Positions 7,908 through 32,912 of a DNA stretch of 64,000 nucleotides are shown piece by piece. The stretch's first letter is position 1; each line of letters starts with the position of its first letter. The notes beneath the pieces were generated by a model. The model saw only the letters and a list, made by a program, of their open reading frames with translations. It was not told where the DNA came from and did not search any database. The DNA is from an uncultured Clostridia bacterium (GTDB lineage: Bacteria > Bacillota_I > Bacilli_A > RF39 > UBA660). Made by a program: the position numbers and the translations under genes. Location: contig CAMOMI010000001.1 in assembly GCA_946619755.1 (NCBI GenBank), positions 33,441-97,440 on the forward strand, given 5' to 3'.

Positions 7908-8183
7908 TCACTTAACATTTAATTTTATAATTGTACATCCTGAATTAAAATTATCCATTTTATATTCTAAAACATTTTTATTATGTTTTAATGCCTCATG
8001 AACTTCATTTTTGACTATACCACTACCAATCCCATGAATAATAACGATTGTATCATTACCTAAAATAACATTTTCCATAACAAAATCGTTGGTCATCATC
8101 CGTGCACTATCTCTATCATATCCGTGTAAATCAATTCTAGGATATCTTTCTAAAAAAATATCGTATACTTCATTTTTTTCCAT
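7908..8183 (-). CDS. Smr (small MutS-related) domain protein
   Basis: [11 protein letters not shown] ... [12 protein letters not shown] ... NSGCTII: Smr-domain signature boxes; 91 aa. Confidence 0.7.
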
Positions 8184-8193
8184 CTCATCACCC

Positions 8194-9414
8194 CTATAAC
8201 GGTAGTTCTATTATACAGTCAGTTCCTTTATTTTTAATACTCTCATATGTCATTTTGCCATTATGAGCCATAATTATTTCATTAGATAATGCTACTCCTA
8301 ACCCAGTACCATTTTTCTTAGTTGTAAAAAACATTTCCTTAATATTAGATAACTCTTCACTATTCATACCTATACCATTATCACTTATTTTAACAAATGC
8401 TTTATTAGCTTCTTGGAACAATTCTATATTTATTATACCATTTTGTTCTATTGATTCAACACTATTTTTTATTACATTAACAAATACTTGTTTAAGTCTA
8501 TCATAATCAGCCTGTAAATATACTTCTTCACAATCGCTTTTATATTTAAAGCAAATATTATTATCCCTCATAAGTATTTCAAAAGATTCATATATCTCAT
8601 CTAAAAGCATCACCAAATCTATTTCTTCTTTATTAACCTTAATCTTGCTATATTCCATAAAATCAGCAATAACATTTAAACTTCTATCAATTTCTGACTT
8701 AATAATATCAATGTATTTTCTACTCTTTAGCTTATCATCTAAATTAATCATATCTAGATATCCTTTACATACTGCAATTGGATTTTTTATTTCATGTGTA
8801 AGTTTAAATAAAGAGTCCTTAAGTTTACTATCATTACTAAACTTATTTATGGTCTTATATAAAGAACTAACATCACTAGCCAACTTAAATAAATATAAAC
8901 AAAAGAAAGTTATTCCATATATTATAAAAATATAAATAATTAACCCTAATAGTTTATGAATATCATCATAAGTATTCATAAAATACTCAAATGATATAAA
9001 GAAAGCTTGGACTATAGCACTAACTTTTAAAAATAAATAATTAAAATCTTTTCGTTGACAAAGTAATAAAAAAGTAATTAAATAGCCAACATACTTAATA
9101 CTCACGACATATACATTAATATCGTACATAATATAACTATAAATAAGTATAATTAATGAAACTATTACCCCTAATAACCATTCTCTTTTAAAATAACATA
9201 TAAGTATTGGAATATTACAAAGTAATAGCAATCTTCCACAAACAAAATTATACTTTAAACTTAAATATATTGATGTAATTATCGTTATTACAAAAAAAAC
9301 TTTTTCAATATTTCGATCATTTAAAGAATTATAACAACTAAATACCAAATACATTAGCACTGGAAATACTACTAAAATAATACTTAATAATACATCTTCC
9401 ATTATAATCACCAA
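8194..9414 (-). CDS. sensor histidine kinase, multi-TM intramembrane-sensing type; no response regulator in the window
   Basis: About 6 N-terminal TM helices then directly H-box FKLTHEIKNPIAVCKGYLDMI, N/G boxes ISDNGIGM and GTGLGVALS; no extracytoplasmic domain, HAMP or PAS. Confidence 0.8.
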   Translation of the reverse strand: MVIIMEDVLLSIILVVFPVLMYLVFSCYNSLNDRNIEKVFFVITIITSIYLSLKYNFVCGRLLLLCNIPILICYFKREWLLGVIVSLIILIYSYIMYDINVYVVSIKYVGYLITFLLLCQRKDFNYLFLKVSAIVQAFFISFEYFMNTYDDIHKLLGLIIYIFIIYGITFFCLYLFKLASDVSSLYKTINKFSNDSKLKDSLFKLTHEIKNPIAVCKGYLDMINLDDKLKSRKYIDIIKSEIDRSLNVIADFMEYSKIKVNKEEIDLVMLLDEIYESFEILMRDNNICFKYKSDCEEVYLQADYDRLKQVFVNVIKNSVESIEQNGIINIELFQEANKAFVKISDNGIGMNSEELSNIKEMFFTTKKNGTGLGVALSNEIIMAHNGKMTYESIKNKGTDCIIELPL

Positions 9415-9434
9415 ATAAATTATAGAATATCTTA

Positions 9435-9484
9435 TATGTCATATTTTGTCGAATTATGTCAAATTATTTAATTTTATGTCAAAA
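9435..9484. promoter_or_regulatory. five tandem 10-bp phased units T(A/T)TGTC(A/G)NNN upstream of the histidine-kinase gene
   Basis: tatgtcatat / tttgtcgaat / tatgtcaaat / tatttaattt / tatgtcaaaa in strict 10-bp register, 20-70 bp upstream of the HK start. Confidence 0.3.
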
Positions 9485-9499
9485 AAAATAAGCTTACGC

Positions 9500-9814
9500 C
9501 TATTTTAATTCTCTTATATATTTTTTTAGTTGCTTAGCATCAGGACCAAAGATAATCTTTAATTGATCATCTATTTCAACCACTCCTTGTGCCCCCAATT
9601 TAATAATTCCTTCTTTATTTGCTTTAGTAATATCTTTCAAAGTAACTTTAAATCTAGACATTTCCATCTCAGTTTCAAGAATATTATCTTTACCACCTAA
9701 TAGTTCTACAAGTTTATTAAACTCAAGAGCTAAATCTTTTCTGTTACTTTTAACAATCGCAAAAGCAATAATTAAGAAAAATACTATTATAAAAGCATAT
9801 TGATACCATTCCAT
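9500..9814 (-). CDS. membrane-anchored PTS EIIB(Glc)-like domain protein with the phospho-accepting Cys replaced by Glu (pseudo-EIIB)
   Basis: LVELLGGKDNILETEMEMSRFKVTLKDITKANKEGIIKLGAQGVV aligns along its length with PtsG IIB [45 protein letters not shown]; the Cys column is E. N-terminal single TM. Start set to ATG 9814 (GAGGTG RBS 6 nt upstream). Confidence 0.65.
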   Translation of the reverse strand: MEWYQYAFIIVFFLIIAFAIVKSNRKDLALEFNKLVELLGGKDNILETEMEMSRFKVTLKDITKANKEGIIKLGAQGVVEIDDQLKIIFGPDAKQLKKYIRELK

Positions 9815-9920
9815 GTTACACACCTCTATTTAAATTATACAATAAAATAAAAAATATAACAATAATATTGTCTAAAATAATCAAATTTGATATAATTAAA
9901 AAAGTAAAGGTGGTAGTAAA

Positions 9921-11240
9921 ATGAAGAAATTAAGTTTTCAAAAAATATTCTGCTTTTTAAGTTTTTTATTTATCTTATCATGTTGTGTCTTTTATGGTTC
10001 TAGATTTATAAAATTATACTTACAAAACAGAAAAATAGAAATTGAAGAAAAGAATTCTTTAATCAAGGTATTAAAGGAAAACAATATGGATAATGAATAT
10101 TTTAAATCAGTAAATGGTCAAAACTATTTTACTAGTAAAACTGATAATAATTATCTTCTTTATTCCGGTATTATATGGCGAATTATTAAAGTAAATGATG
10201 ATAATTCACTAACTGCTATTAGTGAAAATGCTATTTCATCACTAGCTTATGGCAAAGACAATAAGTTTAATGAATCACATATCTTTAATTGGTTAAATAA
10301 AAATGATAGTGATTATTCAGGTATTTTAGAAAAAAATTTAAACAATATTGATAAGTATTTACAAAAAACAACTTCTTGTACTGATTCATTAGATGAATTA
10401 TCTAATAATCCATGTAAAGAAAGCAATACAGATAATTACTTCACCCTATTATCAGTTATTGATTACTTAAATATTGGTTCTAAAGATAGTTATTTAGTTA
10501 ATGATGAATACTTTTATTTAAGCAACACTAACAATGAAAATAAAGTTTGGTATATTGATGATAGTGGTAAATCAAATCTAAGTACAGGTAATGATATTTT
10601 AGGTGTAAGACCAGTTATTACTATCAAAGCAAATATTGATTATGTAAGTGGTAATGGTACCATTAATAATCCTTATTTGATTGAAAAAGATAATGGCCTA
10701 TTTGGTAGCTATGTTAAATTAGGTAATGATATTTGGCGTATTTATGATATTAACGATAATGAAATTAAACTAATGCTAAATGATTATTTAAAAGTTAATG
10801 GCACTAATTTATCATACCGCTATTCAACTTCTACATCATATCATAATGATACTATACCAGGAAGTATCGCATACTACTTAAATAACAATTATTTAAATAG
10901 TTTAAGTTATAAAGATAAAATAAAAGAAACCAAATGGTCAAATGGTTATTATAATAGTACAACTGATTTTGATTATTCAAATTCTTTAAAAGAAACAGTT
11001 GACACCAAAGTAGCCCTAATGAGTGTTGGTAATATCTTTTTAAATAGTGAGCTAAATAATTATTTTACAATGACTGGTTCCGCAAATAGATCAAGCATGG
11101 TGTATACAACTCAAAAAAATGCTAAATTATACACAAAACAAATAGGCACTAGTCTAAATGTTGTTCCAACAATTGCTGTTGATAAAAATATATTAACAAA
11201 AGGAAATGGTACTAAAGATAGTCCATTTGAAATGGAGTAA
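9921..11240 (+). CDS. hypothetical secreted/membrane-anchored Asn-rich protein
   Basis: N-terminal hydrophobic anchor FCFLSFLFILSCCVF; 439 aa, no catalytic motif recognised; 4-nt gap to next gene. Confidence 0.5.
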   Translation: MKKLSFQKIFCFLSFLFILSCCVFYGSRFIKLYLQNRKIEIEEKNSLIKVLKENNMDNEYFKSVNGQNYFTSKTDNNYLLYSGIIWRIIKVNDDNSLTAISENAISSLAYGKDNKFNESHIFNWLNKNDSDYSGILEKNLNNIDKYLQKTTSCTDSLDELSNNPCKESNTDNYFTLLSVIDYLNIGSKDSYLVNDEYFYLSNTNNENKVWYIDDSGKSNLSTGNDILGVRPVITIKANIDYVSGNGTINNPYLIEKDNGLFGSYVKLGNDIWRIYDINDNEIKLMLNDYLKVNGTNLSYRYSTSTSYHNDTIPGSIAYYLNNNYLNSLSYKDKIKETKWSNGYYNSTTDFDYSNSLKETVDTKVALMSVGNIFLNSELNNYFTMTGSANRSSMVYTTQKNAKLYTKQIGTSLNVVPTIAVDKNILTKGNGTKDSPFEME

Positions 11241-11244
11241 TATT

Positions 11245-12282
11245 ATGAAGAAACACAGAAAGAAAAAGAAAAAAATAAATAAATTAACTATTCTCTTTAT
11301 TATTTTAGATATCCTTGCTATTGGCGGATTTATAATGATGTATGGCCCATGGGATACTGTTAGGAACTTTTATGTCACAACTGCTATGAAAACCAAAGAT
11401 CATAAATACTTTGCTAACATTTTCTACAATGATAAAACTATTGAAAAAATATTAAATAGTAACTACTTCGTTGAAATTAAAGAAGATGTAAAACTAGATG
11501 ATATTGTTATTGATACTGCGCCTAAATCAAGTTATGATAATAAATATGATGAAGAAATATTAACACGTACTCCGGGAAATAATGACTACAAAATTATTAA
11601 TATTAAAGTTGGTATATCAAAGGGATACCTAATTGCCATTTATGATCCAACTAAAGTATCCCTAATAAGAGCAAAAAATTTCAACATTGGCAGATATGGT
11701 GAACAAGTAACAGCCATGTGTAATCGATATAATGCATCTGTATGTATCAATGGCGGTGGTTTTGAAGATCCTGCTGGAACTGGATCTGACATTCCTCTTG
11801 GTTACGTAATTGATGATGGTGAAATTGTTTGGCCAGCAAGTGGTTGGGATACTAATACTGGTAATTTAATTGGTTTTAATGGTGAAGGAAAATTACTATT
11901 ATTGGCAGATTCTACCGGTACAGCAGCTCTTGAAGCTGGTATGATGGACGGCCTTGAATTTGGTCCATTCCTAATTGTTAATGGTAAACCAATTGAAATT
12001 GTTGGTGATCCTTGGGGTAAATCTCCAAGAGTAGCCATTGGCCAAAGAAAAGATGGAGTTGTACTATTTTTAGTAATTGATGGAGAAAACTATATAGATG
12101 GTGCTTCATTAAGTGATGTTGTTGATGTCTTTACAAAATATGGTGCATACAATGCTGCCAACTTAGATGGAGGACACTCTTCATCACTATCAATAAATGG
12201 TAGCTTATACAACAATCCACCAGCCATTGCTAAAAGACAAGGTGGAAGATATGTTGTAAGTGGATTTGGATTAATGAAATAA
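11245..12282 (+). CDS. phosphodiester glycosidase family protein (NAGPA/DUF2233 domain), membrane-anchored
   Basis: NGGGFEDPAGTG ... AIGQRKDGVVLFLVIDG ... ANLDGGHSSSL: signature boxes of the NAGPA 'uncovering enzyme'-like domain; poly-Lys N-terminus then TM; start ATG 11245 with GGAG RBS. Confidence 0.7.
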   Translation: MKKHRKKKKKINKLTILFIILDILAIGGFIMMYGPWDTVRNFYVTTAMKTKDHKYFANIFYNDKTIEKILNSNYFVEIKEDVKLDDIVIDTAPKSSYDNKYDEEILTRTPGNNDYKIINIKVGISKGYLIAIYDPTKVSLIRAKNFNIGRYGEQVTAMCNRYNASVCINGGGFEDPAGTGSDIPLGYVIDDGEIVWPASGWDTNTGNLIGFNGEGKLLLLADSTGTAALEAGMMDGLEFGPFLIVNGKPIEIVGDPWGKSPRVAIGQRKDGVVLFLVIDGENYIDGASLSDVVDVFTKYGAYNAANLDGGHSSSLSINGSLYNNPPAIAKRQGGRYVVSGFGLMK

Positions 12283-12316
12283 AAACTTCAGAAGTTATTC
12301 TTCTGAAGTTTTTTCT
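12282..12316. terminator. bidirectional rho-independent terminator between 11245..12282 (+) and recA (-)
   Basis: Perfect 11-bp stem aacttcagaag / cttctgaagtt with loop ttatt, flanked by A-run and T-run. Confidence 0.6.
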
Positions 12317-13332
12317 TTACTTTTTTTATCCTTATTCTTACTTATACCATAATGCTCACGAACTAAAGTTTCAATTTCATTTCTAAAATCTTGATTACTA
12401 GCAAATAACAATTTAACATTTTCTCTTCCTTGAGCTAATTTTTCTCCCTTATAAGAATACCATGCGCCACTTTTTTCAATTATATTAGCTTCGGCTGCCA
12501 AATCTACAAGTTCACCATTTTGACTAACACCTTCACCATACATAATATCAACAGTGGCACTCTTAAATGGCGGTGCTACTTTATTTTTTACAACTTTAAT
12601 ATTAGTCCTATTACCAATAACATCAGTACCATTCTTTATCTGTTCTCCTCTTCTTATATCTAATCTAACTGAAGAATAATACTTTAATGCCTTACCACCT
12701 GGTGTCGTTTCAGGATTACCAAACATAACACCAACTTTTTCTCTTAATTGATTAATAAATATAACAATTGTATTTGTTTTATTAATTGAACCAGATAATT
12801 TTCTTAAAGCTTGCGACATAAGTCTTGCTTGAAGTCCTACATGACTATCCCCCATCTCGCCATCAATTTCTGCTTGTGGTACTAAAGCCGCTACTGAATC
12901 AATTACAATTATACTTACAGCTTCACTCTTAACAAGCGCATCACATATCTCTAATGCCTGTTCTCCAGTATCTGGTTGACTAAGTAATAATTCATCAATA
13001 TTTACTCCTAAATTACTTGCATAAACCGGATCTAATGAATGTTCTGCATCGATAAACGCTGCTCTTCCGCCAGTCTTTTGCACTTCGGCGATGGCATGTA
13101 ATGCAAATGTCGTCTTACCAGAAGATTCTGGACCATATATTTCAATAATCCTTCCCTTAGGATATCCACCAACGCCTAAAGCTATATCTAAAGAAATAGA
13201 ACCACTAGGTACCACATCTATCTCCATATTTTTTTGTTCCCCTAATTTCATTATTGCCCCTTTACCAAATTGCTTCTCAATATCTGCTAATACTTGTTCT
13301 AAGGCTTTATCTTTTTCTACTGTCTTACTCAT
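12295..13332 (-). CDS. recA: recombinase RecA
   Basis: [33 protein letters not shown]..., Walker [10 protein letters not shown], full-length 345 aa. Confidence 0.95.
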
Positions 13333-13396
13333 TATTTCCTCCTCTAATATCAGTACATTCTTATTATATAATGGTTTTTTTTATTTGTCAATACTT

Positions 13397-13418
13397 TTTA
13401 CAAACAATTGTTTGTAAA
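13397..13418. promoter_or_regulatory. perfect 22-bp palindrome TTTACAAACAATTGTTTGTAAA about 65-85 bp upstream of recA; candidate LexA/SOS-type operator variant
   Basis: Perfect dyad with AAAC-N4-GTTT core resembling the Firmicute Cheo box GAAC-N4-GTTC with G->A in each half-site. Confidence 0.3.
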
Positions 13419-13473
13419 AACTGTGAGATCATATATTCAAATACTTAAAAATTGTTATTATCTAATTACAAAT

Positions 13474-13505
13474 AATAAAAAAACAAGAAGTTTTAACCTC
13501 TTGTT
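13474..13505 (-). terminator. rho-independent terminator for LtaS-family gene 13505..15445
   Basis: On the minus strand: aacaagagg-ttaaaa-cttcttgtt followed by TTTTTTT, immediately after the stop codon. Confidence 0.45.
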
Positions 13506-15445
13506 TAATTCAATTTTGGTATTAAATCATATGTAATAATATTATTAGATACTTCGATAATATCATCGGCATACTCACTTCTTTTACTAATATAATCATC
13601 TGAAATAACACCACTCGATAAAGTATATGCTTCATTATTTTTTGCACTATAATATATCTTATCTGTTATATATGAACTATCTCTAAATACTATAATACCA
13701 TCTTCTTTTTTAATACTCATGACATCTTGACCTAAAGCATATTTATTATATACATTTAACATATTACCAAGTGTTGGTAAAACATCAATCATTCCCATTG
13801 GTGTATTAATATTTTTGCTAGTCTTCATATCTTTAGTCCAAATAATAAATGGTACTCTTCTAGACAATTCATAATCATAATCATTAAACTCAGTATAATC
13901 ATCATCTAAAGAAGTAAGTACTTTATCAGTAACTGGATCATAATTATACATATAATCAAATTGACCCTTACTCATTCTAGCATCATGATCACCATAAATA
14001 ACAATTACAGTATCATCGAGCAACCCTTCTTTATCCATATCATTTATAAAATTGCCAATCGCCTTATCCATATAATTAACTGATTTAATATACCTACCCA
14101 TCATAGTATTTTCTAAATAATCTCTTTTAACTTCTACGCCGTCTATATTAACAGTTTTAGAAACATCAAAGTTACTATATTTATAGGCATCTTTCCAAGG
14201 AGTATGATTAGTAAGTGTAATAAGTGTGCCATAAAATGGTCCAGGAACTTCTTCGCTAATTTCTTTAATTTTTGGTACAACTTGTCTAAAGAATGACTCA
14301 TCTGATAATCCTAAACCATATTCTTCATCAACTACAAAAGAACTTTTTGAATAAAACTTATCATATCCCATATTCATATGCATTGTTTCTCTATTCCAAA
14401 AATCTCCTACATTGCCATGCATACTAAAGACATAATATCCTTTATTTTTAAGTAAATTCTGCATAGTTACAAACTTATCATTATAATAATTTACAAAAAC
14501 AGTTCCATTATTTGAAGGAAGTAAACTAGTTGCAAAAGTAAATTCAGTATCTGAACTTGTTCCAACACCAACCTGAGCATAAAAATTATCAAAATACATT
14601 CCAGAATTAATTAGTTTATTTAAATTAGGGGTAACTTCTTTGTCATTAAACTTAAGTCCTATTGTAAAACCTTGCAAACTTTCTGCATGAATAACAATAA
14701 CATTTTTTCCTTCAAATATACCAGTATATTCATTCTTCTTTAATATTTTTTTATTTTCGTTATAATATTCATTCGTATCTTTTAAAGCCTTATCATAACC
14801 AAAAATATTATTAAATGTTGGTCTTAAGCTTTGAACTAAATCATCTACTTGATAAACATAAGGTCCCCAACTATCAAAAACCATTACTCTATTCCATAAT
14901 TTATACAATCTACTAAAAGACGTATATGGTGGTAATGCGCATCCAATAACCATTAATATTAAAGATATCCAAAGAAATACAGAATATTTTTTCTTATTAT
15001 CTCTTTCTCCAATTTTATTTTTCTTTATAACCCAAAACATAGTTATTAATAACCATAAGTATGAAAAATCGCAAGGTCTAACCACCATTTCAACAATAGC
15101 ATCACCAACATCTTTCACAAAAACAGACGTTGCTAACAAAGATACTGATATAAAAGAATTATAATAGTTATAATAAAGTGAATTAGCTACACATATTACC
15201 ACCATAAAAAAAGTAGTTATTCCATAAAATAAATTTTTTCTTTTGACTAATAATGATAATCCAGCTAAAACAAGAATAAAAGCCATATCAAAAAAAATTG
15301 ATCTAACTTGAAAATGCCCTGTCGTAAATAATCTTACTAATATTGCATTAATAAAATTCCCTACAATATAAATACTCATAACTGGATATCTATCCTTAAA
15401 TTTCCTTATCTTATCAAAAAAATTATTAATATTAATATTCTTCAT
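13505..15445 (-). CDS. LtaS-family lipoteichoic acid synthase/primase (5-TM + extracellular sulfatase-fold domain)
   Basis: N-terminal polytopic segment, then sulfatase domain with catalytic Thr box AQVGVGTSSDTEF (cf. S. aureus LtaS GTSADAEF). Confidence 0.85.
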   Translation of the reverse strand: MKNININNFFDKIRKFKDRYPVMSIYIVGNFINAILVRLFTTGHFQVRSIFFDMAFILVLAGLSLLVKRKNLFYGITTFFMVVICVANSLYYNYYNSFISVSLLATSVFVKDVGDAIVEMVVRPCDFSYLWLLITMFWVIKKNKIGERDNKKKYSVFLWISLILMVIGCALPPYTSFSRLYKLWNRVMVFDSWGPYVYQVDDLVQSLRPTFNNIFGYDKALKDTNEYYNENKKILKKNEYTGIFEGKNVIVIHAESLQGFTIGLKFNDKEVTPNLNKLINSGMYFDNFYAQVGVGTSSDTEFTFATSLLPSNNGTVFVNYYNDKFVTMQNLLKNKGYYVFSMHGNVGDFWNRETMHMNMGYDKFYSKSSFVVDEEYGLGLSDESFFRQVVPKIKEISEEVPGPFYGTLITLTNHTPWKDAYKYSNFDVSKTVNIDGVEVKRDYLENTMMGRYIKSVNYMDKAIGNFINDMDKEGLLDDTVIVIYGDHDARMSKGQFDYMYNYDPVTDKVLTSLDDDYTEFNDYDYELSRRVPFIIWTKDMKTSKNINTPMGMIDVLPTLGNMLNVYNKYALGQDVMSIKKEDGIIVFRDSSYITDKIYYSAKNNEAYTLSSGVISDDYISKRSEYADDIIEVSNNIITYDLIPKLN

Positions 15446-15580
15446 AACACAACACCTTTTTTACACATACACATTATACCATATTTTTGTAAAATAAACT
15501 ATCCTTTATTTACTTGATAAACATTTAATGTTATAATTAACATACGATTATTATTTAAAATAATAAATAAGGTGGTAAAA

Positions 15581-17587
15581 ATGAAAGTATCAAAGAAAAA
15601 GAAGAAGAAAAAAATAACCAAAAAGCAAATTATTTGCTTCTTAAAATTTATTTTTGATAAAATAGTTACTTTTTTATATAAATATAAATATATTTTCATA
15701 ATGATATTACCATTTATTGCTATGGATATAATTACTAGATTATTTGGAAGTAGTATTAATTTTTATAAAACATATCGCCTTCCTCCTAATCTATTTACTA
15801 TATCATGGACAATATTATTTATTGGTTTATCACTAAGTTTTAGCAAAAAAATTGGTAAAAGATTATATTTGATATTTAATATTATTTTTTTAGCTATGTT
15901 TTTAACTAACAACGTATACTTTTCAATGACTAAAACGTTTTTTGATTTTAACTTAATTGAATCAGCTTCTGAAGGTGCTCCTTATATTCTTGACGCCTTA
16001 AAGAACTGTAATATTCTAGTATATATAGCCTTTACTTTTATTATTATTTTAATATATTACGGTTATAAACACATTCCCTATAAAACTAAGGGAAATAAAA
16101 AAATATTTATATATACTATTATACTTTTCTTAATTATTCATACAATTACACCATTTACCTTAGGTAAAGCTAATCAAGAATTAACTTGGTCTTCATGGCG
16201 TAATCCAAGAAATATTTATAATTCGTTTAATGATAGCAACAAAAGTTTTAAAGTTAGTGGATTATATGAATATACCATTAGAAATTTTTATATCACGTTT
16301 TTAAAAACCGAATCTGAAGAAAATAGTGAAGATATTGAATTTCTAAATCTAGCTTTCGAGAATATTGAAACCCATAAAAATAAATATACTGGTATCTTTA
16401 AAGATAAGAATTTGATATTTGTCCAACTTGAAGGTTTAGATACATGGCTTATGACTGAAGAAGATACACCAACATTTATGAAAATGAAAAATAATGCTTA
16501 TGTTTTTAATAATCACTTCTCATATTATAATGGTGGTGGATCAACATTTAATTCAGAATTTGCCGTTAACACTGGTTTTATCACTCCATTATCTTATACT
16601 CAAAACGCATATACTTTTAACAAAAATTATTTTCCATATTCAATGGCACATTTGTTTAAAAACTTAGGTTATATAGTTAATGCTTTTCATATGAATAGTG
16701 GTGAATATTATTCACGAACAGTTAATTATAAAAATTGGGGATACGACAATTATTATGGCTTAAAAGATATGTTTGATTATTCCGATAACACTCACACCTT
16801 AGATAGAGAATTAGTTTTAAATGAAACCTTTAATGAACTAATGTTCCCAGAAGAAGGAAAATTCGTAGATTACGTTATTGCCTACTCTAGCCATTTGCCT
16901 TTTACTAATACTAAAGGCGTATGTAAATTATTGTACGATTTAGATCACGCTCCCGTAGAAACCGATGAAAACAAAAATAATGATAGTGAAACTACAGAAA
17001 CTGATACCAAGAAAGCTGAAGAAATAGTTAGAGAACCAATGACAGAAGAAGAATGCGCTCGTCGCCAAGCTAAAGAAACCGACTATATGATGGAATTAAT
17101 CTTACAAAATCTTGAAGAAAAGAATTTATCAGATAATACCATTGTTATCGTATTTACTGACCATTATTTATATACCATTGAAGATAAATCAATATTAGAT
17201 AGATATAAGGAAACCAGCAACAACCTAATTAACAAAACGCCATTCTTTATTTACAGTAAGAATACTAAAAAGACTAACATTAATAAAGTAACTTCTCAAT
17301 TAAATATTTTGCCAACAGTTTTAAATCTATGGGGAATTGATTATAGTTCAAATAATTATATTGGCAAAGATGCTCTAGATCCTAAATATGAAGGAATCGT
17401 CTTCTTTAGTGACTACTCTTGGTATGATGGTAATGTTTATGTTGCCAATGGTGAAATAACTAATGGTAAATCAATCTCATATGATAAATTAGAAGAAAAG
17501 AACTTCTATGTAAGTAATATGACAAAAAAGAACGATTTGGCTCTAAAATATAATTATTTTAAGAAGAAAAATAATGAAGATCATTAA
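15581..17587 (+). CDS. second LtaS-family enzyme (paralog), with acidic insertion
   Basis: 5 TM + sulfatase domain, catalytic box NGGGSTFNSEF; Glu/Asp/Thr-rich insertion ETDENKNNDSETTETDTKKAEE; start set to ATG 15581 after AAGGTGG RBS; poly-Lys N-terminus. Confidence 0.8.
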   Translation: MKVSKKKKKKKITKKQIICFLKFIFDKIVTFLYKYKYIFIMILPFIAMDIITRLFGSSINFYKTYRLPPNLFTISWTILFIGLSLSFSKKIGKRLYLIFNIIFLAMFLTNNVYFSMTKTFFDFNLIESASEGAPYILDALKNCNILVYIAFTFIIILIYYGYKHIPYKTKGNKKIFIYTIILFLIIHTITPFTLGKANQELTWSSWRNPRNIYNSFNDSNKSFKVSGLYEYTIRNFYITFLKTESEENSEDIEFLNLAFENIETHKNKYTGIFKDKNLIFVQLEGLDTWLMTEEDTPTFMKMKNNAYVFNNHFSYYNGGGSTFNSEFAVNTGFITPLSYTQNAYTFNKNYFPYSMAHLFKNLGYIVNAFHMNSGEYYSRTVNYKNWGYDNYYGLKDMFDYSDNTHTLDRELVLNETFNELMFPEEGKFVDYVIAYSSHLPFTNTKGVCKLLYDLDHAPVETDENKNNDSETTETDTKKAEEIVREPMTEEECARRQAKETDYMMELILQNLEEKNLSDNTIVIVFTDHYLYTIEDKSILDRYKETSNNLINKTPFFIYSKNTKKTNINKVTSQLNILPTVLNLWGIDYSSNNYIGKDALDPKYEGIVFFSDYSWYDGNVYVANGEITNGKSISYDKLEEKNFYVSNMTKKNDLALKYNYFKKKNNEDH

Positions 17588-25811: not shown

Positions 25812-26648
25812 TCAATTTTTTTTACTTTTATATCTAAACATATAAGATGGTCTATGTCCTCCACCAGTTTTCATTTTATCAGTTTTTTCTACCTTATCTG
25901 CAATTATTCTTCTAAATGCAGGATCTAATAATTTTTTACCTAAAATTACTTCATATACTTGTTGAAGTTCTCCTAAAGTAAAATATTCTGGCATCATATT
26001 AAATACTATATCTGTATAATTCAACTTATTTCTAAGACGTTCAATTCCAGCCACGATTGCTAATGGATGATCAAATGCCAAATCTTTATTTTCCTTAATC
26101 TTAAATGTATATCTATCTGTAGTTAATTCTCTAAGTACTTTTGTTATACTAAATTTTATTGTATTCTTTCCATTATCCAAAACAACCACAATTTCTTTGC
26201 CATCATCCTTATACAAAGTAATATCAAACCAACAAGCATTTTCATTTACCTTATCATCCAATCTGTTTTTATCAACTAATGCCATATAAGTAGTAGATAA
26301 AACTCTACATCTAGGATCTCTATCTATTGCATCATACGTATATAATTGTTCCAAATAAATATTAGATAAATTAGTTTCATTTTTTAAAATTCTTTTCGTA
26401 CAATCATCCAAAGTTTCTGTCTCAGGATTTATAAATCCTCCAGGCAAACACCACATATCCTTATATGGATAATTATGTCTTTTAATAAGTAAAACAGACA
26501 TTTTTTTCTCACTATTTTTTCGATAATTACCTGTACTTTCTTCTGAAACACTAAAAAGTAATATATCTGTACTAAGTGATAATTGCTTATATTTATTAAC
26601 ATTATAATTAGCTAAAAAATCAGCTTCACTAAGATACTCTTTTTTCAT
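25812..26648 (-). CDS. nrtR: NrtR-like Nudix-related transcriptional regulator (Nudix domain + C-terminal winged helix)
   Basis: N-terminal Nudix fold (LLIKRHNYPYKDMWCLPGGFINPETETLDDCTKRILKNETNL), C-terminal ~90 aa wHTH-like (TLGELQQVYEVILGKKLLDPAFRRII) and direct linkage to nadK-nadD-nadE-pncAB. Confidence 0.65.
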   Translation of the reverse strand: MKKEYLSEADFLANYNVNKYKQLSLSTDILLFSVSEESTGNYRKNSEKKMSVLLIKRHNYPYKDMWCLPGGFINPETETLDDCTKRILKNETNLSNIYLEQLYTYDAIDRDPRCRVLSTTYMALVDKNRLDDKVNENACWFDITLYKDDGKEIVVVLDNGKNTIKFSITKVLRELTTDRYTFKIKENKDLAFDHPLAIVAGIERLRNKLNYTDIVFNMMPEYFTLGELQQVYEVILGKKLLDPAFRRIIADKVEKTDKMKTGGGHRPSYMFRYKSKKN

Positions 26649-26677
26649 ACTACCACCAAGTAAATTATATCAAAAAA

Positions 26678-27475
26678 TTACTTTGAAAGCAATTTTTCGT
26701 TCACTTTCCTACTAAAGTTAGAATCTCTAAATCTTAAACATTTAATCTTTTTATCTCTTATATAAGTATCAATACTACCTACATTATTAAAAGTACTATG
26801 TTCACCATCAATTGTTAACATCATATCACTTGTATATCCAGAAGGTATTATCATAATATCTTTATTTCTAGGAATAATTATTGAAGTAACTAAATTAGTA
26901 TATGCTTTTGAATTAATTGGTGCAAGTGGTGTAATTTGAAGTGTTGGTAAATCACTATAAACAATACTTCCACCATAACTTAAATTATGTCCAGTTGATC
27001 CAATCGTTGATGATATTAATAATCCATCCCCTGTAAATACTTCTAATAAGTCATTATCAACAAATACATCTAATTTAGCTGTTTTCAAATTAGCATCCCT
27101 AATTATTATTTCATTCAAAGAATATATTCTATCTTCTTTATCATTATGATTTATCACTGTTTCTTGAATATATATCTCATCCAATTTATATTCACCATTC
27201 TGAATAGCTCTAATTAATCTATTAATTTCATGCTCATTTGCTTCTTGTAGAAAGCCTAAAGTCCCAGCATTAATGCCAACATAATAAGGACATTCATCAA
27301 AATTACTATTTCTAACCATTCTAATAAATGAACCATCACCACCAATAGCAATTCCCAAATCAAATGAATTATCTGATATTATAAAACCATTTCCAATAAA
27401 ACTATCTCTAACTAATTTAGCTAATCTAATTGATTGATCATTATTATTGATAAATAATTTAATATTTTTTATCAC
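26678..27475 (-). CDS. nadK: NAD kinase
   Basis: GGDGSFIR (GGDG motif), NAGTLGFL, DGLLISSTIGSTGH. Confidence 0.85.
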   Translation of the reverse strand: MIKNIKLFINNNDQSIRLAKLVRDSFIGNGFIISDNSFDLGIAIGGDGSFIRMVRNSNFDECPYYVGINAGTLGFLQEANEHEINRLIRAIQNGEYKLDEIYIQETVINHNDKEDRIYSLNEIIIRDANLKTAKLDVFVDNDLLEVFTGDGLLISSTIGSTGHNLSYGGSIVYSDLPTLQITPLAPINSKAYTNLVTSIIIPRNKDIMIIPSGYTSDMMLTIDGEHSTFNNVGSIDTYIRDKKIKCLRFRDSNFSRKVNEKLLSK

Positions 27476-27505
27476 AATATCACTCCTTAAATATATGTAT
27501 TAGTA

Positions 27506-28201
27506 TTAATCTTCCCAATTATCATATACCATTCCATCTTCTCTAAATATTTTATATCTGCCTTCACATTTCATACATTCTAAATCCAGCCTAATTGATA
27601 TATTACCATGATATTCATCTATATCTTTTTTTAATTTATTTAAAGTTTCAGTATTTATACTATGCTTCTGTATATAATCATCTATTTCTTTATTTACACC
27701 ATTACTATCTATTAATTTCTTAAATGTAACTTGTTTAACAGTCTTAGGAATAAGTTCTAGTATCTTAGTTAAACTATAATTATTATAACTATCAGTCATA
27801 ATCAAAACATATCTTTGAATCTTACCCATTGGTTTTATTTTATCCAATAACCTAATATCAGATATTGAATAAGCTACTACATCTATTCTATCATATATTT
27901 CATCAGTTTTATAATAATGAGTCTGCAATTCTATTTGAATATCTTTATCAGTTTTTCTAACTATATCAATAATATTACTAACACAATCTTTGGATTGCAT
28001 TGGCTCATTAGTCCCAGTAATTACTATATATTTTAAATCATCATTAGATTTAATTACCTTAATCAAATTGCTTTTCCACAAATCAAAATTAAGATTATAG
28101 TTATTAATAAAAATATTATTATGCCTATGTCCTTTTGCTATGCAAAATGGACAATTAAATATACATTCCATATGTGGTGTAACAACTTGCAAACTCTTCA
28201 T
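27506..28201 (-). CDS. small radical SAM protein (QueE/NrdG-like minimal fold), function unknown, embedded in NAD operon
   Basis: CIFNCPFC (CX3CX2C) 13 aa from N-terminus; glycine-rich SAM box IVITGTNEP (cf. TGGEP); 231 aa; extra C-terminal CMKCEGRY. Confidence 0.6.
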   Translation of the reverse strand: MKSLQVVTPHMECIFNCPFCIAKGHRHNNIFINNYNLNFDLWKSNLIKVIKSNDDLKYIVITGTNEPMQSKDCVSNIIDIVRKTDKDIQIELQTHYYKTDEIYDRIDVVAYSISDIRLLDKIKPMGKIQRYVLIMTDSYNNYSLTKILELIPKTVKQVTFKKLIDSNGVNKEIDDYIQKHSINTETLNKLKKDIDEYHGNISIRLDLECMKCEGRYKIFREDGMVYDNWED

Positions 28202-28212
28202 ATAATCACTTC

Positions 28213-28764
28213 CTACCTATATAAATTATTATCTTTAATATACTTTAATACTTTCCTATCCAAATACCTACTATCTAAATTATCTCTAATTTCACTAGAT
28301 GATATATCTATATATTTATAGCCATCTATAACAATAAAATTATTGCTATGATATTTTTGTATATATTTATTAATATCAATATCATCTCTATTCATAACAA
28401 TTATTTTATATCCAAGTAATTCTTGATATTCTTTCCACTTATCAAAATCAATAACATTATCAGCCCCAATTATTAAATATAATTCATCACTATAATCTTT
28501 CCTTAATGCTCTCATTAACTGATAAGTATATGCATATCCATTGTGTTCTTCATCCACTTTAATTTTATCGTTTTCAAAGAATTTTAACATATTAATGCGA
28601 TGTTTAATATCAATTAAATTATCTTTATTCCAATAAGCTAATGTTGGTACAATTAATACTCTGTCAACATAGTTGTTGATAAGTAAATAATTAACCACAT
28701 CCAAATGCCCAATATGCACTGGATTAAAGCTACCAATATATATTCCTAATCTCATCGTTATCAC
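28213..28764 (-). CDS. nadD: nicotinate-nucleotide adenylyltransferase
   Basis: GIYIGSFNPVHIGHLDV ((H/T)xGH nucleotidyltransferase motif), ~183 aa. Confidence 0.85.
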   Translation of the reverse strand: MITMRLGIYIGSFNPVHIGHLDVVNYLLINNYVDRVLIVPTLAYWNKDNLIDIKHRINMLKFFENDKIKVDEEHNGYAYTYQLMRALRKDYSDELYLIIGADNVIDFDKWKEYQELLGYKIIVMNRDDIDINKYIQKYHSNNFIVIDGYKYIDISSSEIRDNLDSRYLDRKVLKYIKDNNLYR

Positions 28765-28765
28765 C

Positions 28766-29200
28766 TTATCTATATCTATTCATCCAAATGTTATTAACTA
28801 ATCTTTTTGCTTTTTCATGATTATTAATTAATTCATCTTTTTCATTACGATAAATAATTATTGGATATATATCATCATCCATAATTATCATTGGCACATT
28901 ATTAACATCAACAATTACATAAGATCTATCAAATTCACTTTCATATGATACATATTTAAACACATCATTAACACAAGTATCACATATTGGCGGATCATAC
29001 TTTCTTAATTTTGCTCGTCCATAATCAATTTCATAATAATTTTCGCATTTTGTGCAATGACATTTATATGTTCTTTTAATATCGAATCCCGTAATACCTT
29101 CATATTCATATTTTTTATAATCATCTTTTTTTGATATTTCAATATCACTTCCACTCGTCTTACATTTAGGACAAGCTAGTGATTTTCTTATCTTATTCAT
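28766..29200 (-). CDS. Cys-rich zinc-ribbon protein of unknown function, embedded between nadE and nadD
   Basis: CPKC ... CHCTKC ... CDTC arrangement; overlaps nadE by 8 nt and ends 1 nt before nadD. Confidence 0.5.
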   Translation of the reverse strand: MNKIRKSLACPKCKTSGSDIEISKKDDYKKYEYEGITGFDIKRTYKCHCTKCENYYEIDYGRAKLRKYDPPICDTCVNDVFKYVSYESEFDRSYVIVDVNNVPMIIMDDDIYPIIIYRNEKDELINNHEKAKRLVNNIWMNRYR

Positions 29201-29960
29201 TAATTATCCTATAAGTAGCGACATTAAACTTATGTAAATTACTACGATGTAATTTTTTTATCTTATCTTTACTTTCTTTGCTTACATTAGGATTACCAGG
29301 ATTTTTAATAACTTCTGCAATTTCACTATATTTAACCCCTAATTTTTCTTCATCAGTCTTACCAGATAAGCCATCATCTGGAGTTTTATGGATTACGCTA
29401 TCAGGTACTCCAATGTATTCACCTACTTGAATTACTTCATCGACAGTCAAATCAGCAAATATTTGTATATCACTGACATTATCTCCACCTTTAGTAAAAT
29501 ATCCAACATATAATTCACATTTATTACTAGTACCAGGAACAATATATACTCCTTTTTTAATACTTGATAACATTGCTGCATAATAATATAAAGTACTCAT
29601 TCTAAGCCTTGGTTTAATATTGATATTAGCATCAACTAAATTATCATCATCAACTAAATTATTGCTTTTTATTTGTTTAACATATTCATCATAAAAATTA
29701 GTTAAATCAAAGTCTTTTAATTCAAATCCAAAGTGATCAGCCACCAACTTAGCATTTTCATAATCTTCTTCTTTAGAATGACATGGCATCCAAATACCAA
29801 CCACATTTTCTGGCCCTAATGCCTTAGCAAACAATCCAGCTACAACTCCTGAATCCTTTCCTCCAGATATTCCAATTACCGCTCCTTTTAAATTATATTT
29901 TTCATAATAATTTCTAATAAATTCTATAATTTCATTTGTTACTTTCTCTACATTAAACAT
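29193..29960 (-). CDS. nadE: NH3-dependent NAD+ synthetase
   Basis: PP-loop GISGGKDSGVVAGL; ~255 aa without glutaminase domain. Confidence 0.9.
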   Translation of the reverse strand: MFNVEKVTNEIIEFIRNYYEKYNLKGAVIGISGGKDSGVVAGLFAKALGPENVVGIWMPCHSKEEDYENAKLVADHFGFELKDFDLTNFYDEYVKQIKSNNLVDDDNLVDANINIKPRLRMSTLYYYAAMLSSIKKGVYIVPGTSNKCELYVGYFTKGGDNVSDIQIFADLTVDEVIQVGEYIGVPDSVIHKTPDDGLSGKTDEEKLGVKYSEIAEVIKNPGNPNVSKESKDKIKKLHRSNLHKFNVATYRIINE

Positions 29961-30540
29961 TATTTCTTCTCCTTACATATGTTTTTTCTTTTTCAATTAA
30001 ATATGCTGAATTAAGACCAGTTATATAGCCTCCAATAAGTAGCTCTTCTAATTCATCTTTATCAACTAACACATACTTAATATATTCACTTGCATCTAGT
30101 TTTTGTTCTCCTACTTTTTTACAATCAAGTGCTAAAAAGTAATGATTAAACGCCGATGAACATCCTTGATCTTGATAAAATGAACCAACATGAATTAAAT
30201 TATCACTTGCATAACCTGTCTCTTCCAATAGTTCTCTCTTTGCAGCATCTATCGGTTCTTCACCTTGTTCAATATACCCTGCCGGAAGGCCTATTCCAAC
30301 CGTTCCTTTAGTAAAAACTCTAGGTTCGATTGCAATAATAACCTTTCCATCATTAGTAACCGGATAGACAACTACTGCACTGCCATCTTTTTTGTTCTTA
30401 AGTATTTTTTCTCTTCGTATTACTTCACCATTATTTAACTCACATAAATATGCCTCAATTGATAAGAATTTATTATCAACTTGCCTTGTCATACATATTG
30501 TCTTATATTCTTCCAAGGCTTTAATTATCTCTTGTTTCAT
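29953..30540 (-). CDS. NUDIX hydrolase (ADP-ribose pyrophosphatase-like)
   Basis: Nudix box GLPAGYIEQGEEPIDAAKRELLEETGY. Confidence 0.8.
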   Translation of the reverse strand: MKQEIIKALEEYKTICMTRQVDNKFLSIEAYLCELNNGEVIRREKILKNKKDGSAVVVYPVTNDGKVIIAIEPRVFTKGTVGIGLPAGYIEQGEEPIDAAKRELLEETGYASDNLIHVGSFYQDQGCSSAFNHYFLALDCKKVGEQKLDASEYIKYVLVDKDELEELLIGGYITGLNSAYLIEKEKTYVRRRNNV

Positions 30541-30621
30541 AACATCACTTCCAACTATTTTTTCTAACTTTTACATTATTATTGCAATTAAATTGCCTAT
30601 TTGTTTTATCATATTTGTCAT

Positions 30622-32094
30622 CTATATTTTTCTTACTAATTTCTTAACATTCATAATCATCTCATTTTTAAATTTGACATATTCTTCTGTACCATCTACA
30701 TAATATCCATGAGGCTTTTCAATTCTTTTTATTTCTGGATATAAAGTAGCCATTTGTCTATCACAATATCTCTGTTTTTCCATTATTTGTGGATCACTAT
30801 ATACAAGTTTACCTCTTATAAATATTGGTTTTTGCAACCTAACCAATTCAAAATTACTAATTATTGTTCTTTTTAACATATCCGTAGGACTCACAATTAA
30901 TAATTTATCTTTATTAATTTTTTCATTTTGTCTTGTCATAATATCAGCTAAAGCAAATCCTGTATCTTTATCATATGCACGATATAAAATCTTAAAATCA
31001 GGATTAACTATTTTAATTGCATCATTACTTAATTTTATTTTTGGAACCCAATAACCATTTTCATTTAATCCTACTTCTTTATACACACAACCCATTCGAC
31101 CATCTGGTTTAGAAATATTATCACCTACCCCTAAGCTATCAAATTTAGCACCTTGCATTATTAATGATTTAATTGTCTTATCAGTAAGCCCATTACTTAA
31201 ACATATCTTTGCTTGTGGAAATTCTGCCGCATCCAACATTTTTCTAGCCTCTATAGATAAATAAGCTAAATCTCCAGAATCAATTCTAATTCCAATATGA
31301 TCAGTATTCATTCCACTATCTTGCATATATTTAAATGTCTTAATCGCATTAGGCACTCCACTTCTTAAAGTATCAATTGTATCAACAAGCAGTATGCAAT
31401 TATTTGGATATATCTTAGCATATGCTAAGAAAGCTTCTAATTCAGTTTCATAAGATTCAATAAAACTATGAGCCATTGTTCCAAGTGCTTTAATATTTAA
31501 CATATCAGCTGCAATCATATTACTAGTTCCAACACAACCAGCCATAATACCATAAATTGATGAATCAATTGCCGCTTCACTACCATCAGCTCTTCTTGCC
31601 CCAAATTCCATTACACCAACACCTTTTGGAACAGCTTCAATTATTCTTCTAGCACCAGTTGCATGTTCCATAGCCCCATTAATCATACTTAAAATAGCCG
31701 TTTCAACAATCTGTGCTTCAATAAGTGGCGCCTTAACTGTTATAAGTGGTTCGTTAGGAAATACTGGTGTTCCATCAGGTATCGCATATATATCACCACT
31801 AAACTTAAAATTCTTTAAATAATTAATAAATTCTTCTGAATAACCATTTCTTCTAAAATAAGCAAGTTCAACTTCTCCAAATCTAAGATTTTCAATATAA
31901 GAAATTATTTTATCAAGACCCGCCATAATTGCATATCCGCCTTCATTAGGAACCTTTCTAAAAAAGACATCAAAAACAGCTTCGTTACTATCTTTTCCAT
32001 TTAAATAATATCCTTGAGCCATTGTAAATTCATACTCATCTGATAACAATGTATAATTTCTAGCTAATCGTTGATAACCATTATATAATTCCAT
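30622..32094 (-). CDS. pncB: nicotinate phosphoribosyltransferase
   Basis: 490 aa; N-terminus YTLLSDEYEFTMAQGYY... typical of NAPRTase. Confidence 0.9.
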   Translation of the reverse strand: MELYNGYQRLARNYTLLSDEYEFTMAQGYYLNGKDSNEAVFDVFFRKVPNEGGYAIMAGLDKIISYIENLRFGEVELAYFRRNGYSEEFINYLKNFKFSGDIYAIPDGTPVFPNEPLITVKAPLIEAQIVETAILSMINGAMEHATGARRIIEAVPKGVGVMEFGARRADGSEAAIDSSIYGIMAGCVGTSNMIAADMLNIKALGTMAHSFIESYETELEAFLAYAKIYPNNCILLVDTIDTLRSGVPNAIKTFKYMQDSGMNTDHIGIRIDSGDLAYLSIEARKMLDAAEFPQAKICLSNGLTDKTIKSLIMQGAKFDSLGVGDNISKPDGRMGCVYKEVGLNENGYWVPKIKLSNDAIKIVNPDFKILYRAYDKDTGFALADIMTRQNEKINKDKLLIVSPTDMLKRTIISNFELVRLQKPIFIRGKLVYSDPQIMEKQRYCDRQMATLYPEIKRIEKPHGYYVDGTEEYVKFKNEMIMNVKKLVRKI

Positions 32095-32096
32095 AT

Positions 32097-32702
32097 TTAT
32101 CTCTTCTTTCCTAATATTTTAATTCCATTTGCTTGCATTCTAGCAAGTGCCTCTTCAGTAACAGCATCAGCATTATGCAAAGGTGCATTAAATGTATCAA
32201 TTGCATCACTATGTACAGCTACACAAACATCTTTGTTTATTTGATCAAAAAATGTTTTTAATCCAATTGCTCCATTTAAAACACATACTTCTGATAAACA
32301 ACCCATTAATCTTATTCTTTCCAAATTATAAAATCTTATTAAATCTTGTTGAAGTCCTAAAGCAAACATTAAATTAGTACTATTTTTTAAATAATGAAGT
32401 GCATAGCGTTCATACTTTTTAAGTTCATCAATTACTTCCGTTTCTTTTGTTCCTTCAATACAATGAACTCCATATGTTTTAAACTCTACAGCATCAATTG
32501 GATGACTATCTCTAATAAATATCATTCCTGTTTCGTTATTATTAATTGCTTCATCAAGTAATTCTATTTGTCTAGGTACTACTCTCATAATAGATGGCGC
32601 TGCTAAATTTCCTTCTTTCGCAAAACCATTAACCATATCAATTGTAATTAACAATTCCTTTACTCCAGTTAATTTTTCAATATCATTATTAAATGTTTTC
32701 AT
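32097..32702 (-). CDS. pncA: nicotinamidase (isochorismatase-fold cysteine hydrolase)
   Basis: Isochorismatase family fold, catalytic Cys in MGCLSEVCV, 2-nt gap to pncB. Confidence 0.75.
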   Translation of the reverse strand: MKTFNNDIEKLTGVKELLITIDMVNGFAKEGNLAAPSIMRVVPRQIELLDEAINNNETGMIFIRDSHPIDAVEFKTYGVHCIEGTKETEVIDELKKYERYALHYLKNSTNLMFALGLQQDLIRFYNLERIRLMGCLSEVCVLNGAIGLKTFFDQINKDVCVAVHSDAIDTFNAPLHNADAVTEEALARMQANGIKILGKKR

Positions 32703-32716
32703 ATTACCATTCCTTT

Positions 32717-32836
32717 CTTATTAACATTTTATTAATAACATTAAATATATTTAAAGAGAAGACTTTTTATCATTTTGTTAAAAACATCTTTTAAAATTAT
32801 AACAAGTATCTTCTCTTGTTAATAACATTTTATTAA
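32717..32836. promoter_or_regulatory. two copies of an 18-bp dyad TTAATAACATTTTATTAA (TTAATAA-N4-TTATTAA) upstream of pncA; candidate NrtR operators
   Basis: Copy 1 embedded in TTATTAACATTTTATTAATAACATT at 32717-32745; copy 2 at 32819-32836; both within the 200-bp pncA leader. Confidence 0.35.
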
Positions 32837-32885
32837 AAACAAATTAATTTGTCAACCCTTTTTTATTATTTTGTAAAAAAAAAAT

Positions 32886-32912
32886 AAAAAAACTACCAAT
32901 CGGTAGTTTTAA
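32886..32912 (-). terminator. rho-independent terminator of Trx-CcdA gene
   Basis: aaactacc-gatt-ggtagttt hairpin overlapping the stop codon, T-run after it on the minus strand. Confidence 0.5.

Follow-up and report, generated by a model that had tools for sequence, protein, structure and literature searches.

A radical-SAM-fold protein family embedded in NAD salvage operons of rumen and gut Bacilli, with a sister branch in phages

The biosynthesis and salvage of nicotinamide adenine dinucleotide (NAD) are among the best-mapped areas of bacterial metabolism. In the salvage regulons described for NrtR, a Nudix-related repressor responding to adenosine diphosphate ribose (ADP-ribose), the genes pncA, pncB, nadD, nadE and nrtR stand behind operators that are 21-bp palindromes (Rodionov et al., 2008; PMC2330246). 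A textbook case of such an operon is found in the DNA analysed here, a 64-kb, AT-rich segment (GC content ~27%) of an uncultured Clostridia bacterium (contig CAMOMI010000001.1, positions 33,441 to 97,440; hereafter the window), in which nine consecutive open reading frames (ORFs) follow one another in the order pncA-pncB-nudix-nadE-X-nadD-Y-nadK-nrtR (Table 1). We mainly address Y, whose product has the fold of radical S-adenosylmethionine (SAM) enzymes, and its neighbour X. The key finding is that Y belongs integrally to NAD salvage operons and is widely conserved in them, and that a sister branch of its family is found in phages.

Fold and family of Y

Y contains the two motifs that an initial annotation of the window had ascribed to it, C13-x3-C17-x2-C20 (CIFNCPFC) and T62-G-T-N-E-P67, and is the sole ORF of more than 120 amino acids (aa) with a CxxxCxxC motif in the window. 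The partial (beta/alpha)6 TIM barrel that characterises the radical-SAM superfamily is present in the model of Y, where the cluster loop (C13, C17, C20) comes after beta1 (strand 3-7), the GGE-like T-G-x-x-E-P lies at the end of beta2 and an AYS motif is located on beta4. A precomputed match to the Pfam Radical_SAM model PF04055 is present on many close homologues of Y, and a fold search of the viral database BFVD gave generic, unannotated radical-SAM matches only.

To place Y, profile searches were performed against Pfam, NCBIfam, PHROGs, PADLOC and PDB sequences, and none of them gave a match at cutoff. The top NCBIfam match was TIGR04038 (TatD-associated radical SAM; residues 12-96), with 22.3 bits against a cutoff of 129.7, and NrdG2 reached 16 bits against a cutoff of 131. 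The viperin models NF038283 and PADLOC pVip were not matched by Y. Searching the PDB sequences with two family profiles yielded nothing significant, the best matches being MqnE (E 0.017) and several viperins (E ~0.1). The initial annotation had left room for Y being a known enzyme such as QueE, NrdG or a pyruvate formate-lyase activase (PflA), but all three stayed far under their cutoffs, as did the viperin and TatD-linked models. On these searches, Y is a radical-SAM-fold protein outside every characterised family.

Among 5.8 billion proteins, homologues with 55-100% identity to Y form 184 clusters (90% clustering), nearly all of them unnamed and from rumen or gut metagenome-assembled genomes labelled 'Bacilli bacterium'. 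When 1.84 billion representatives at 50% identity were searched exhaustively with a profile, 350 clusters were obtained at E <= 1e-3 (139 at E <= 1e-10), many of which align over the full length of Y. No NCBIfam model scored above cutoff on ten distant family members, and no PHROG was matched by five distant relatives and a homologue from Lacrimispora, one of which gave faint viperin signals with PADLOC. SPASM, twitch and RRE domains were not found in Y, and no recognisable nucleic-acid-binding domain was found in the family, whose median isoelectric point (pI) of ~6.1 is acidic to neutral. Judged by its sequence, Y defines a previously undescribed family, for which Pfam, NCBIfam and PHROGs have no dedicated model.

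In an alignment of 46 family members, Q5, P9, C13, C17, C20, G63, P67, T94, S112, T159, K161, D206, C209, R215, Y216 and Y226 are invariant, and L4, P18, T62, E91, Q93, R130, Q157, R220, G223 and W229 are kept in at least 90% of the sequences. The family-specific basic and aromatic residues and the fourth cysteine, C209, cluster at the C-terminal hairpin and the final strands of the barrel, and the conserved candidate substrate-binding residues are common to the cellular and phage clades. The 22 sequences of the NAD-linked clade share 57 invariant residues. The resulting signature, NLQ...P...CxxxCxxC, ITGxxEP, ELQT, AYS, QxTxK, DxxC and RYxxFRxDGxxYxxW, should ease both annotation and testing.

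Linkage of Y to NAD genes in bacteria and phages

In a scan with each GTDB species represented by a single genome, 23 Y loci were identified, in 21 of which Y lies inside clusters of pncA, pncB, nudix, nadE, nadD, nadK and nrtR. Some of the Y-containing clusters carry a glutamine-dependent NadE, and they often add prs, cinA/pncC, an ADP-ribosylglycohydrolase gene and pnuC/nadR. A metagenome scan contributed a further 80 Y loci. After removal of duplicates by Y sequence, each locus was classed as linked (core NAD gene at most 5 kb away), unlinked (no such gene, despite flanks of 3 kb or more to either side) or too short in its flanks. At 47% identity to Y or more, 45 loci were linked, 3 unlinked and 8 too short; between 36 and 46% these numbers were 1, 2 and 4, and below 36% they were 2, 22 and 19. 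The linkage thus holds across species to ~36% identity, contrary to the possibility, raised in the initial annotation, that it is not conserved in relatives.

The order nadE-Y-nadD is the commonest, and nadD-Y-nadK, prs-Y-nadD and Y-pncA-pncB-nadE-nrtR also occur. As gene order differs between lineages, the association of Y with NAD genes has survived repeated rearrangement. A clade at 36-38% identity is found in NAD clusters with a different regulator context (pncA-pncB-nadE-Y-prs in locus L031 and ADP-ribosylglycohydrolase-nadE-Y-nrtR in locus L063). No conserved protein partner was found beside Y across the loci, and because a universal neighbour is missing we argue that Y acts alone.

The only homologue from a named cultured species is that of Lacrimispora amygdalina (47% identity; L021:1-12693), which, as an exception to the NAD linkage, lies in a mobile-looking island of unknown genes. 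Genes for a metallophosphatase, a HAD phosphatase and an ATP-grasp protein of the R2K clade are also present there. At the edge of L021, what appears by eye to be the C-terminal end of a Sir2-type protein, unconfirmed by any search, was noted.

Family members with no more than ~40% identity are found in phage or prophage-like DNA with long runs of small same-strand ORFs, surrounded by genes for an integrase, DNA methylases, HNH, Fic, dCMP deaminase and NT5C, and 20 IMG/VR contigs of 30-333 kb carry a Y-like gene. A Pfam scan of 112 phage neighbours detected AAA_33 (polynucleotide-kinase-like) in 5, HNH in 3 and KTI12, NADAR and Metallophos in 2 each, the two NADAR genes belonging to two loci, as well as Thg1, T4 RNA ligase and one pair of NadE and nicotinate phosphoribosyltransferase (NAPRTase). 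Clustering of 721 ORFs revealed no universal phage neighbour, the commonest being a polynucleotide-kinase-like P-loop protein at 7 of 25 loci.

In a 333-kb jumbo phage (L055), 8.7 kb of DNA (7983-16673) encode a Y-like protein, Thg1, NADAR, NadE, CinA/PncC, DUF5662, a Nudix protein, NAPRTase and a PncA-like isochorismatase. The Y-like gene (32% identity) is located ~3.3 kb from the NAD salvage cluster, with Thg1 and NADAR in between. The NAD association therefore recurs independently in this jumbo phage, yet it is not general among phages. A tblastn search of 50,697 GenBank phage records matched only two unannotated 735-kb metagenomic-phage records, identical in length and match coordinates, and the L055 homologue used as a query gave no match in the same records; no cultured phage with a member of the Y family was found among them.

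Architecture of the operon, X and other recruited genes

The initial annotation had described a contiguous operon of nine genes with gaps of no more than 30 nt, or overlaps, from nudix to nrtR. All nine ORFs are present on the minus strand at the positions listed in Table 1, and the gaps and overlaps were borne out by the gene junctions, which were taken straight from the window sequence. The seven NAD-related genes were confirmed by Pfam and NCBIfam profile searches; for the Nudix gene the nearest NCBIfam models, NudE and YffH/AdpP, both scored under cutoff. There is a gap of 81 nt between pncB and nudix, and both nudix and nadE (the latter with X, ATGAATAA) overlap the following gene by 8 nt. 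The TAA of X is followed by GGTGATAACG, with a GGTGA Shine-Dalgarno sequence, and then by the ATG of nadD. The statement that X ends 1 nt before nadD holds if an upstream GTG starts nadD, but not with the ATG, which leaves a gap of 10 nt. On identical sheep-rumen contigs gene callers start nadD at the ATG, and judging from these features the true start is likely the ATG at 28755. Between the TAG of nadD and the ATG of Y there is an 11-nt spacer containing GGAAGTGA, and the spacers between Y and nadK and between nadK and nrtR measure 30 and 29 nt, respectively.

Table 1. Genes and regulatory elements of the NAD salvage operon (window coordinates)
Feature	Description	Position	Strand	Match or remark
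Operon	Nine consecutive ORFs, pncA to nrtR	25812-32702	-	
pncA	Nicotinamidase, isochorismatase family	32097..32702	-	Pfam Isochorismatase 2.4e-16
pncB	Nicotinate phosphoribosyltransferase	30622..32094	-	NCBIfam NF006695, 554 bits, cutoff 469
nudix	Nudix hydrolase, ADP-ribose-pyrophosphatase-like	29953..30540	-	Pfam NUDIX
nadE	NH3-dependent NAD synthetase	29193..29960	-	TIGR00552, 171 bits, cutoff 64
X	144 aa, lineage-restricted, Cys4 zinc-ribbon-like motif	28766..29200	-	
nadD	Nicotinate mononucleotide (NaMN) adenylyltransferase	28213..28764	-	TIGR00482, 122 bits, cutoff 112
Y	231 aa, radical-SAM fold, founding member of undescribed family	27506..28201	-	
nadK	NAD kinase	26678..27475	-	Pfam NAD_kinase and NAD_kinase_C
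nrtR	Nudix-related ADP-ribose-responsive repressor	25812..26648	-	Pfam NrtR_WHD 2.2e-17 and NUDIX
Promoter	TTGACA-17-TAAAAT	32827..32855	-	11/12 positions match; overlaps one palindrome
Palindromes	21 bp, TTATTAACA-N3-TGTTAATAA, three copies, putative NrtR operators	32718-32738, 32764-32784, 32819-32839	-	

The promoter in Table 1 is the sole strong one of the region and is located upstream of pncA, beyond which lies the terminator of the upstream gene (32889-32910). No minus-strand terminator was predicted inside the operon, and no riboswitch or structured RNA of Rfam was found in it at E <= 1. With at most 3 mismatches, the palindrome occurs 3 times in the window against 0.81 expected, each time within 122 bp upstream of pncA. 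The same palindrome was found upstream of pncA in nine related loci, and in operons that begin with Y it stands directly in front of this gene. Nested 11-bp palindromes, TGTTA-T-TAACA, were seen inside the 21-bp motif. The palindrome is probably the NrtR operator of the window's lineage; its 21-bp architecture agrees with that of the published NrtR sites (PMC2330246), although their GT-N7-AC core fits it poorly. As in an NrtR regulon, Y is predicted to be co-transcribed with the NAD genes behind palindromic operators, with nrtR in cis.

X is predicted to combine a Cys4 zinc-ribbon-like motif with a long beta-meander and C-terminal helices, and no family or fold relatives of it were found. The cysteine clusters CPKC, CHCTKC and CDTC reported for X are all present, but the last is no conserved feature, since C73 is not conserved among the homologues; C10, C47, C49, C52 and C76 are invariant and C13 occurs in 5 of 6 sequences. 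The homologues of X form about 21 clusters in a narrow clade and belong to an NrtR-linked NAD operon in every context examined, usually as nadE-X-nadD. With these homologues and the 184 clusters of Y, both X and Y are taken to be genuine genes. X is absent from all 23 species-representative Y loci, and among the metagenome loci it accompanies Y solely in lineages closely related to that of the window. In three divergent contexts (L026, L142, L143) the operon of X contains no Y, and in a fourth (L144) the order is pncA-nudix-X-pnuC-nadR, together with a different radical-SAM gene. The co-function of X and Y that had been proposed from translational coupling is thus unsupported; such coupling alone is weak evidence, and the argument is carried by comparative genomics. 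As a partner or substrate of Y, X was rejected because its clade is narrow, most Y operons lack it and it often occurs without Y. X is a lineage-specific, putative zinc-ribbon beta-protein that was added to the NAD operon, not an obligate partner of Y.

Several other genes were noticed in or beside these operons. An acidic ORF of 51-61 aa (..SSQRNLCWRIAMGEEK..YK..GLEDFL.A.DFD.E), without a Pfam match and absent from the window, is located directly upstream of Y in a sub-clade with Y as the first operon gene (L071:7823-7975, L090:7797-7979, L119:880-1062, L079:78-260, L076:1-77); it is present in two tandem copies in L077 (701-880, 892-1071) and as truncated remnants in L087, L094 and L098. A family of ~134 aa without Pfam or NCBIfam matches occurs in or beside NAD operons (L012:1552-1956, L013:644-1048, L011:4518-4952, L004:5595-5996, L091:2335-2718), in L004 directly upstream of Y. 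The small ORFs of ~134, 144 and 51-61 aa near Y in other lineages proved unrelated to X and to each other, and they gave no Pfam match. The gap between pncB and nudix can hold a protein of ~213 aa without a family match (L024:5996-6637, the same gene as in L069; L019:4072-4638; L006:4072-4680), with 40-45% identity between lineages, or a foreign-looking Bro-N-domain protein (L142:3831-4664). Further foreign-looking inserts stand between a HemN-like gene and nadK in the otherwise conserved operon of L064 (10155-14294), namely ORFs of 958 aa (with a weak match of kinase type), 152 aa (rich in Ser and Pro) and 264 aa.

The HemN-like radical-SAM gene (425-427 aa) directly follows nadD or Y in two separate lineages with 64% mutual identity (L016:7758-9041, L017:7770-9050, L064/L065:8820-10097), its closest model being the 'STM4012 family' (160-175 bits, cutoff 380). 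Another radical-SAM type of ~300 aa (Fer4_12; weakly MoaA/HxsC-like) is shared, at 41% identity, by two lineages whose NAD operons are linked to NrtR (L016:9045-9947; L144:8580-9485, the latter without Y). Its relation to Y is limited to the generic SAM-binding half (hhalign probability 93%, 82 columns). The NAD operons of these bacteria seem to have recruited radical-SAM genes repeatedly.

Proposed role of Y and comparison with known enzymes and regulons

We propose that Y, as a member of a new family, functions as a radical-SAM enzyme and acts on a nucleotide of the NAD pool by repair, isomerisation or salvage, and we give this proposal about an even chance of being correct. To the fold, the motifs, the novelty of the family, the conserved operon membership and the operator-like sites described above it adds an enzyme activity, a substrate class and a reaction type that we infer. 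Anaerobic rumen and gut Bacilli would co-transcribe Y with the NAD salvage genes under the ADP-ribose-sensing repressor NrtR, and the six-stranded partial TIM barrel of Y would hold one [4Fe-4S] cluster on C13, C17 and C20. Reductive cleavage of SAM would generate a 5'-deoxyadenosyl radical, which would abstract a hydrogen from the substrate, a small anion of nucleotide type from the NAD, nicotinate adenine dinucleotide (NaAD) or ADP-ribose pool. The conserved R130, K161, R215 and R220 may bind the phosphate or carboxylate of this substrate, Y216, Y226 and W229 may stack on its base, and C209 of the DxxC motif in the C-terminal beta-hairpin, possibly with a Tyr, may serve as a hydrogen-atom relay. 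Hydrogen-atom donor cysteines or relays are used in radical-SAM epimerases and spore-photoproduct lyase, and the putative C209/Tyr relay resembles those of repair enzymes and viperin-type dehydratases. By the proposed reaction, a pyridine or ADP-ribosyl nucleotide of non-canonical form would re-enter the NAD pool.

The substrate is probably an NAD- or ADP-ribose-related nucleotide; the NAD, NaAD and ADP-ribose pool is favoured because viperins are, marginally, the nearest relatives, the pI of the family is ~6.1 and Y adjoins NadD, NadE, Prs and NadK. More tentatively, and with somewhat less than an even chance, Y may be the first radical-SAM enzyme of NAD metabolism, catalysing a new oxygen-independent reaction on a pyridine or ADP-ribosyl nucleotide. 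Candidates for this reaction are the re-anomerisation or repair of damaged NAD(H) and the release of a usable niacin moiety from a non-canonical gut precursor. The initial annotation had held that NAD(P) pathways contain no known radical-SAM step, and literature searches for radical SAM together with NrtR, NAD salvage, NADAR, ADP-ribose or phage NAD reconstitution, in which subscription journals were incompletely covered, found no such enzyme. The occurrence of Y in NrtR-controlled operons across dozens of species-level lineages suggests a gap in the NAD map of anaerobic gut and rumen bacteria, which might be filled by a modified cofactor, by a reaction that repairs, or by a precursor not previously recognised as salvageable. 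As Y recurs in phages, once beside a full NAD salvage set, it could also be relevant to how NAD is depleted and reconstituted in the conflict between phages and bacteria; on the more tentative reading, phages would have borrowed Y to sustain or manipulate the NAD pool of the host during infection.

Several findings weigh against a role of Y as an enzyme of NAD metabolism. The match of Y itself to PF04055 (27.0 bits, E 6e-06) is just under the gathering cutoff of 29.5, and to our knowledge no reaction of NAD biosynthesis or salvage needs radical chemistry. The canonical NAD pathway is complete in the operon without Y, which is why a repairing, isomerising or precursor-liberating role would be the most economical one. 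In a sub-clade with 57-63% identity and the motif ITGNNEPMQSK (L078, L082/L080/L008, L096, L068, L083), Y stands alone in ordinary chromosomal contexts, either monocistronic or among membrane and lipoprotein genes, and NAD genes are absent over 3-8 kb, so that the enzyme is retained outside the operon as well. Likewise, 22 of the 24 phage-clade members with long flanks have no NAD genes within 5-8 kb, and the 51-61-aa ORF could be a peptide partner or substrate of Y in its sub-clade.

Y might instead modify or repair tRNA, RNA or DNA and owe its operon position to the co-regulation of NAD-consuming nucleic-acid transactions. We consider this unlikely. In its favour, the phage neighbours include the polynucleotide-kinase-like proteins mentioned above, KTI12-like kinases, Thg1, a T4-type RNA ligase, metallophosphatases, NADAR, DNA methylases and dCMP deaminase, and the Lacrimispora homologue adjoins an R2K ATP-grasp gene and phosphoesterases. 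These phage neighbours vary in kind, however, and not one of them is shared by all loci. Cellular Y genes almost always have NAD genes rather than RNA-repair genes alongside, and the pI of the family and its lack of a recognisable nucleic-acid-binding domain also speak against a nucleic-acid substrate. Still less likely is an activase or maturase of a protein or peptide that would introduce a glycyl radical or another modification into an operon enzyme, X or a small peptide. Neither a glycyl-radical enzyme nor a conserved peptide was found among the annotated neighbours of Y at more than 140 loci, Y scores far below the NrdG2 cutoff and lacks the SPASM, twitch and RRE domains, and X and Y occur without each other. 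The small neighbours are mutually unrelated, and the small upstream ORF, which the window lacks, is limited to a single sub-clade and seems to be truncated in its sister loci.

That Y is a phage-derived passenger, domesticated or selfish, which inserted into a highly expressed locus and was then inherited vertically, is distinctly improbable. The abundance of the family in phages and the foreign-looking inserts that NAD operons also gain (Bro-N, the HemN-like and ~300-aa radical-SAM genes, the 958-aa kinase-like ORF) fit such an origin, but the linkage is retained over identities of 36-75% and after several changes of gene order, including those placing Y first behind the operator, the 57 residues remain invariant in the NAD clade, and the NAD association arose independently in the jumbo phage. 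Finally, the reading of Y as a small radical-SAM enzyme of known type (QueE, NrdG, PflA or prokaryotic viperin) that has diverged and has its partner elsewhere in the genome is largely refuted and very improbable: the generic fold of Y resembles all four, and two phage-clade members match viperin faintly, but their scores of 27 and 29 bits stay far under the cutoff, 180.

Returning to Y as an enzyme of the NAD pool, its marginally nearest relatives, by structure and by faint sequence signal, are the nucleotide-modifying viperins. Y is 14% identical to viperin and the prokaryotic viperins, is ~60 residues shorter than the viperin core and differs in its C-terminal signature, which contains an invariant Cys, and its context is NAD salvage instead of a defence island or a kinase-linked antiviral setting (no PADLOC match). 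The PflA/NrdG activases and QueE (COG0602, 'organic radical activating enzymes') are like Y in size, in the N-terminal CxxxCxxC and in the single cluster, and database records give some members of the Y family COG0602-type activase names; Y has neither a match to the curated QueE model nor linkage to queC, queD or folE. The likeness to TIGR04038 is confined to the SAM-binding N-terminal half, and the low score and the absence of a TatD neighbour set Y apart. Queuine lyase, a small radical-SAM salvage enzyme, shows no specific sequence similarity to Y and ranks 29th by structure.

In the 2022 survey of viral NAD-ADPr systems the word 'radical' is absent, and the systems described are of the NadV/NadM type, in contrast to the deamidated-route (PncA/PncB/NadE) salvage set of L055. 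The genes nrtX and nrtY of the 2008 NrtR paper (PMC2330246) were considered as counterparts of Y and rejected, as they are a different gene pair from actinobacterial and proteobacterial regulons. Compared with the regulons of that paper, the relatives of the window's operon also carry prs, pnuC/nadR, cinA/pncC and the ADP-ribosylglycohydrolase gene, and the presence of a radical-SAM gene distinguishes the operon of the window from all of those published.

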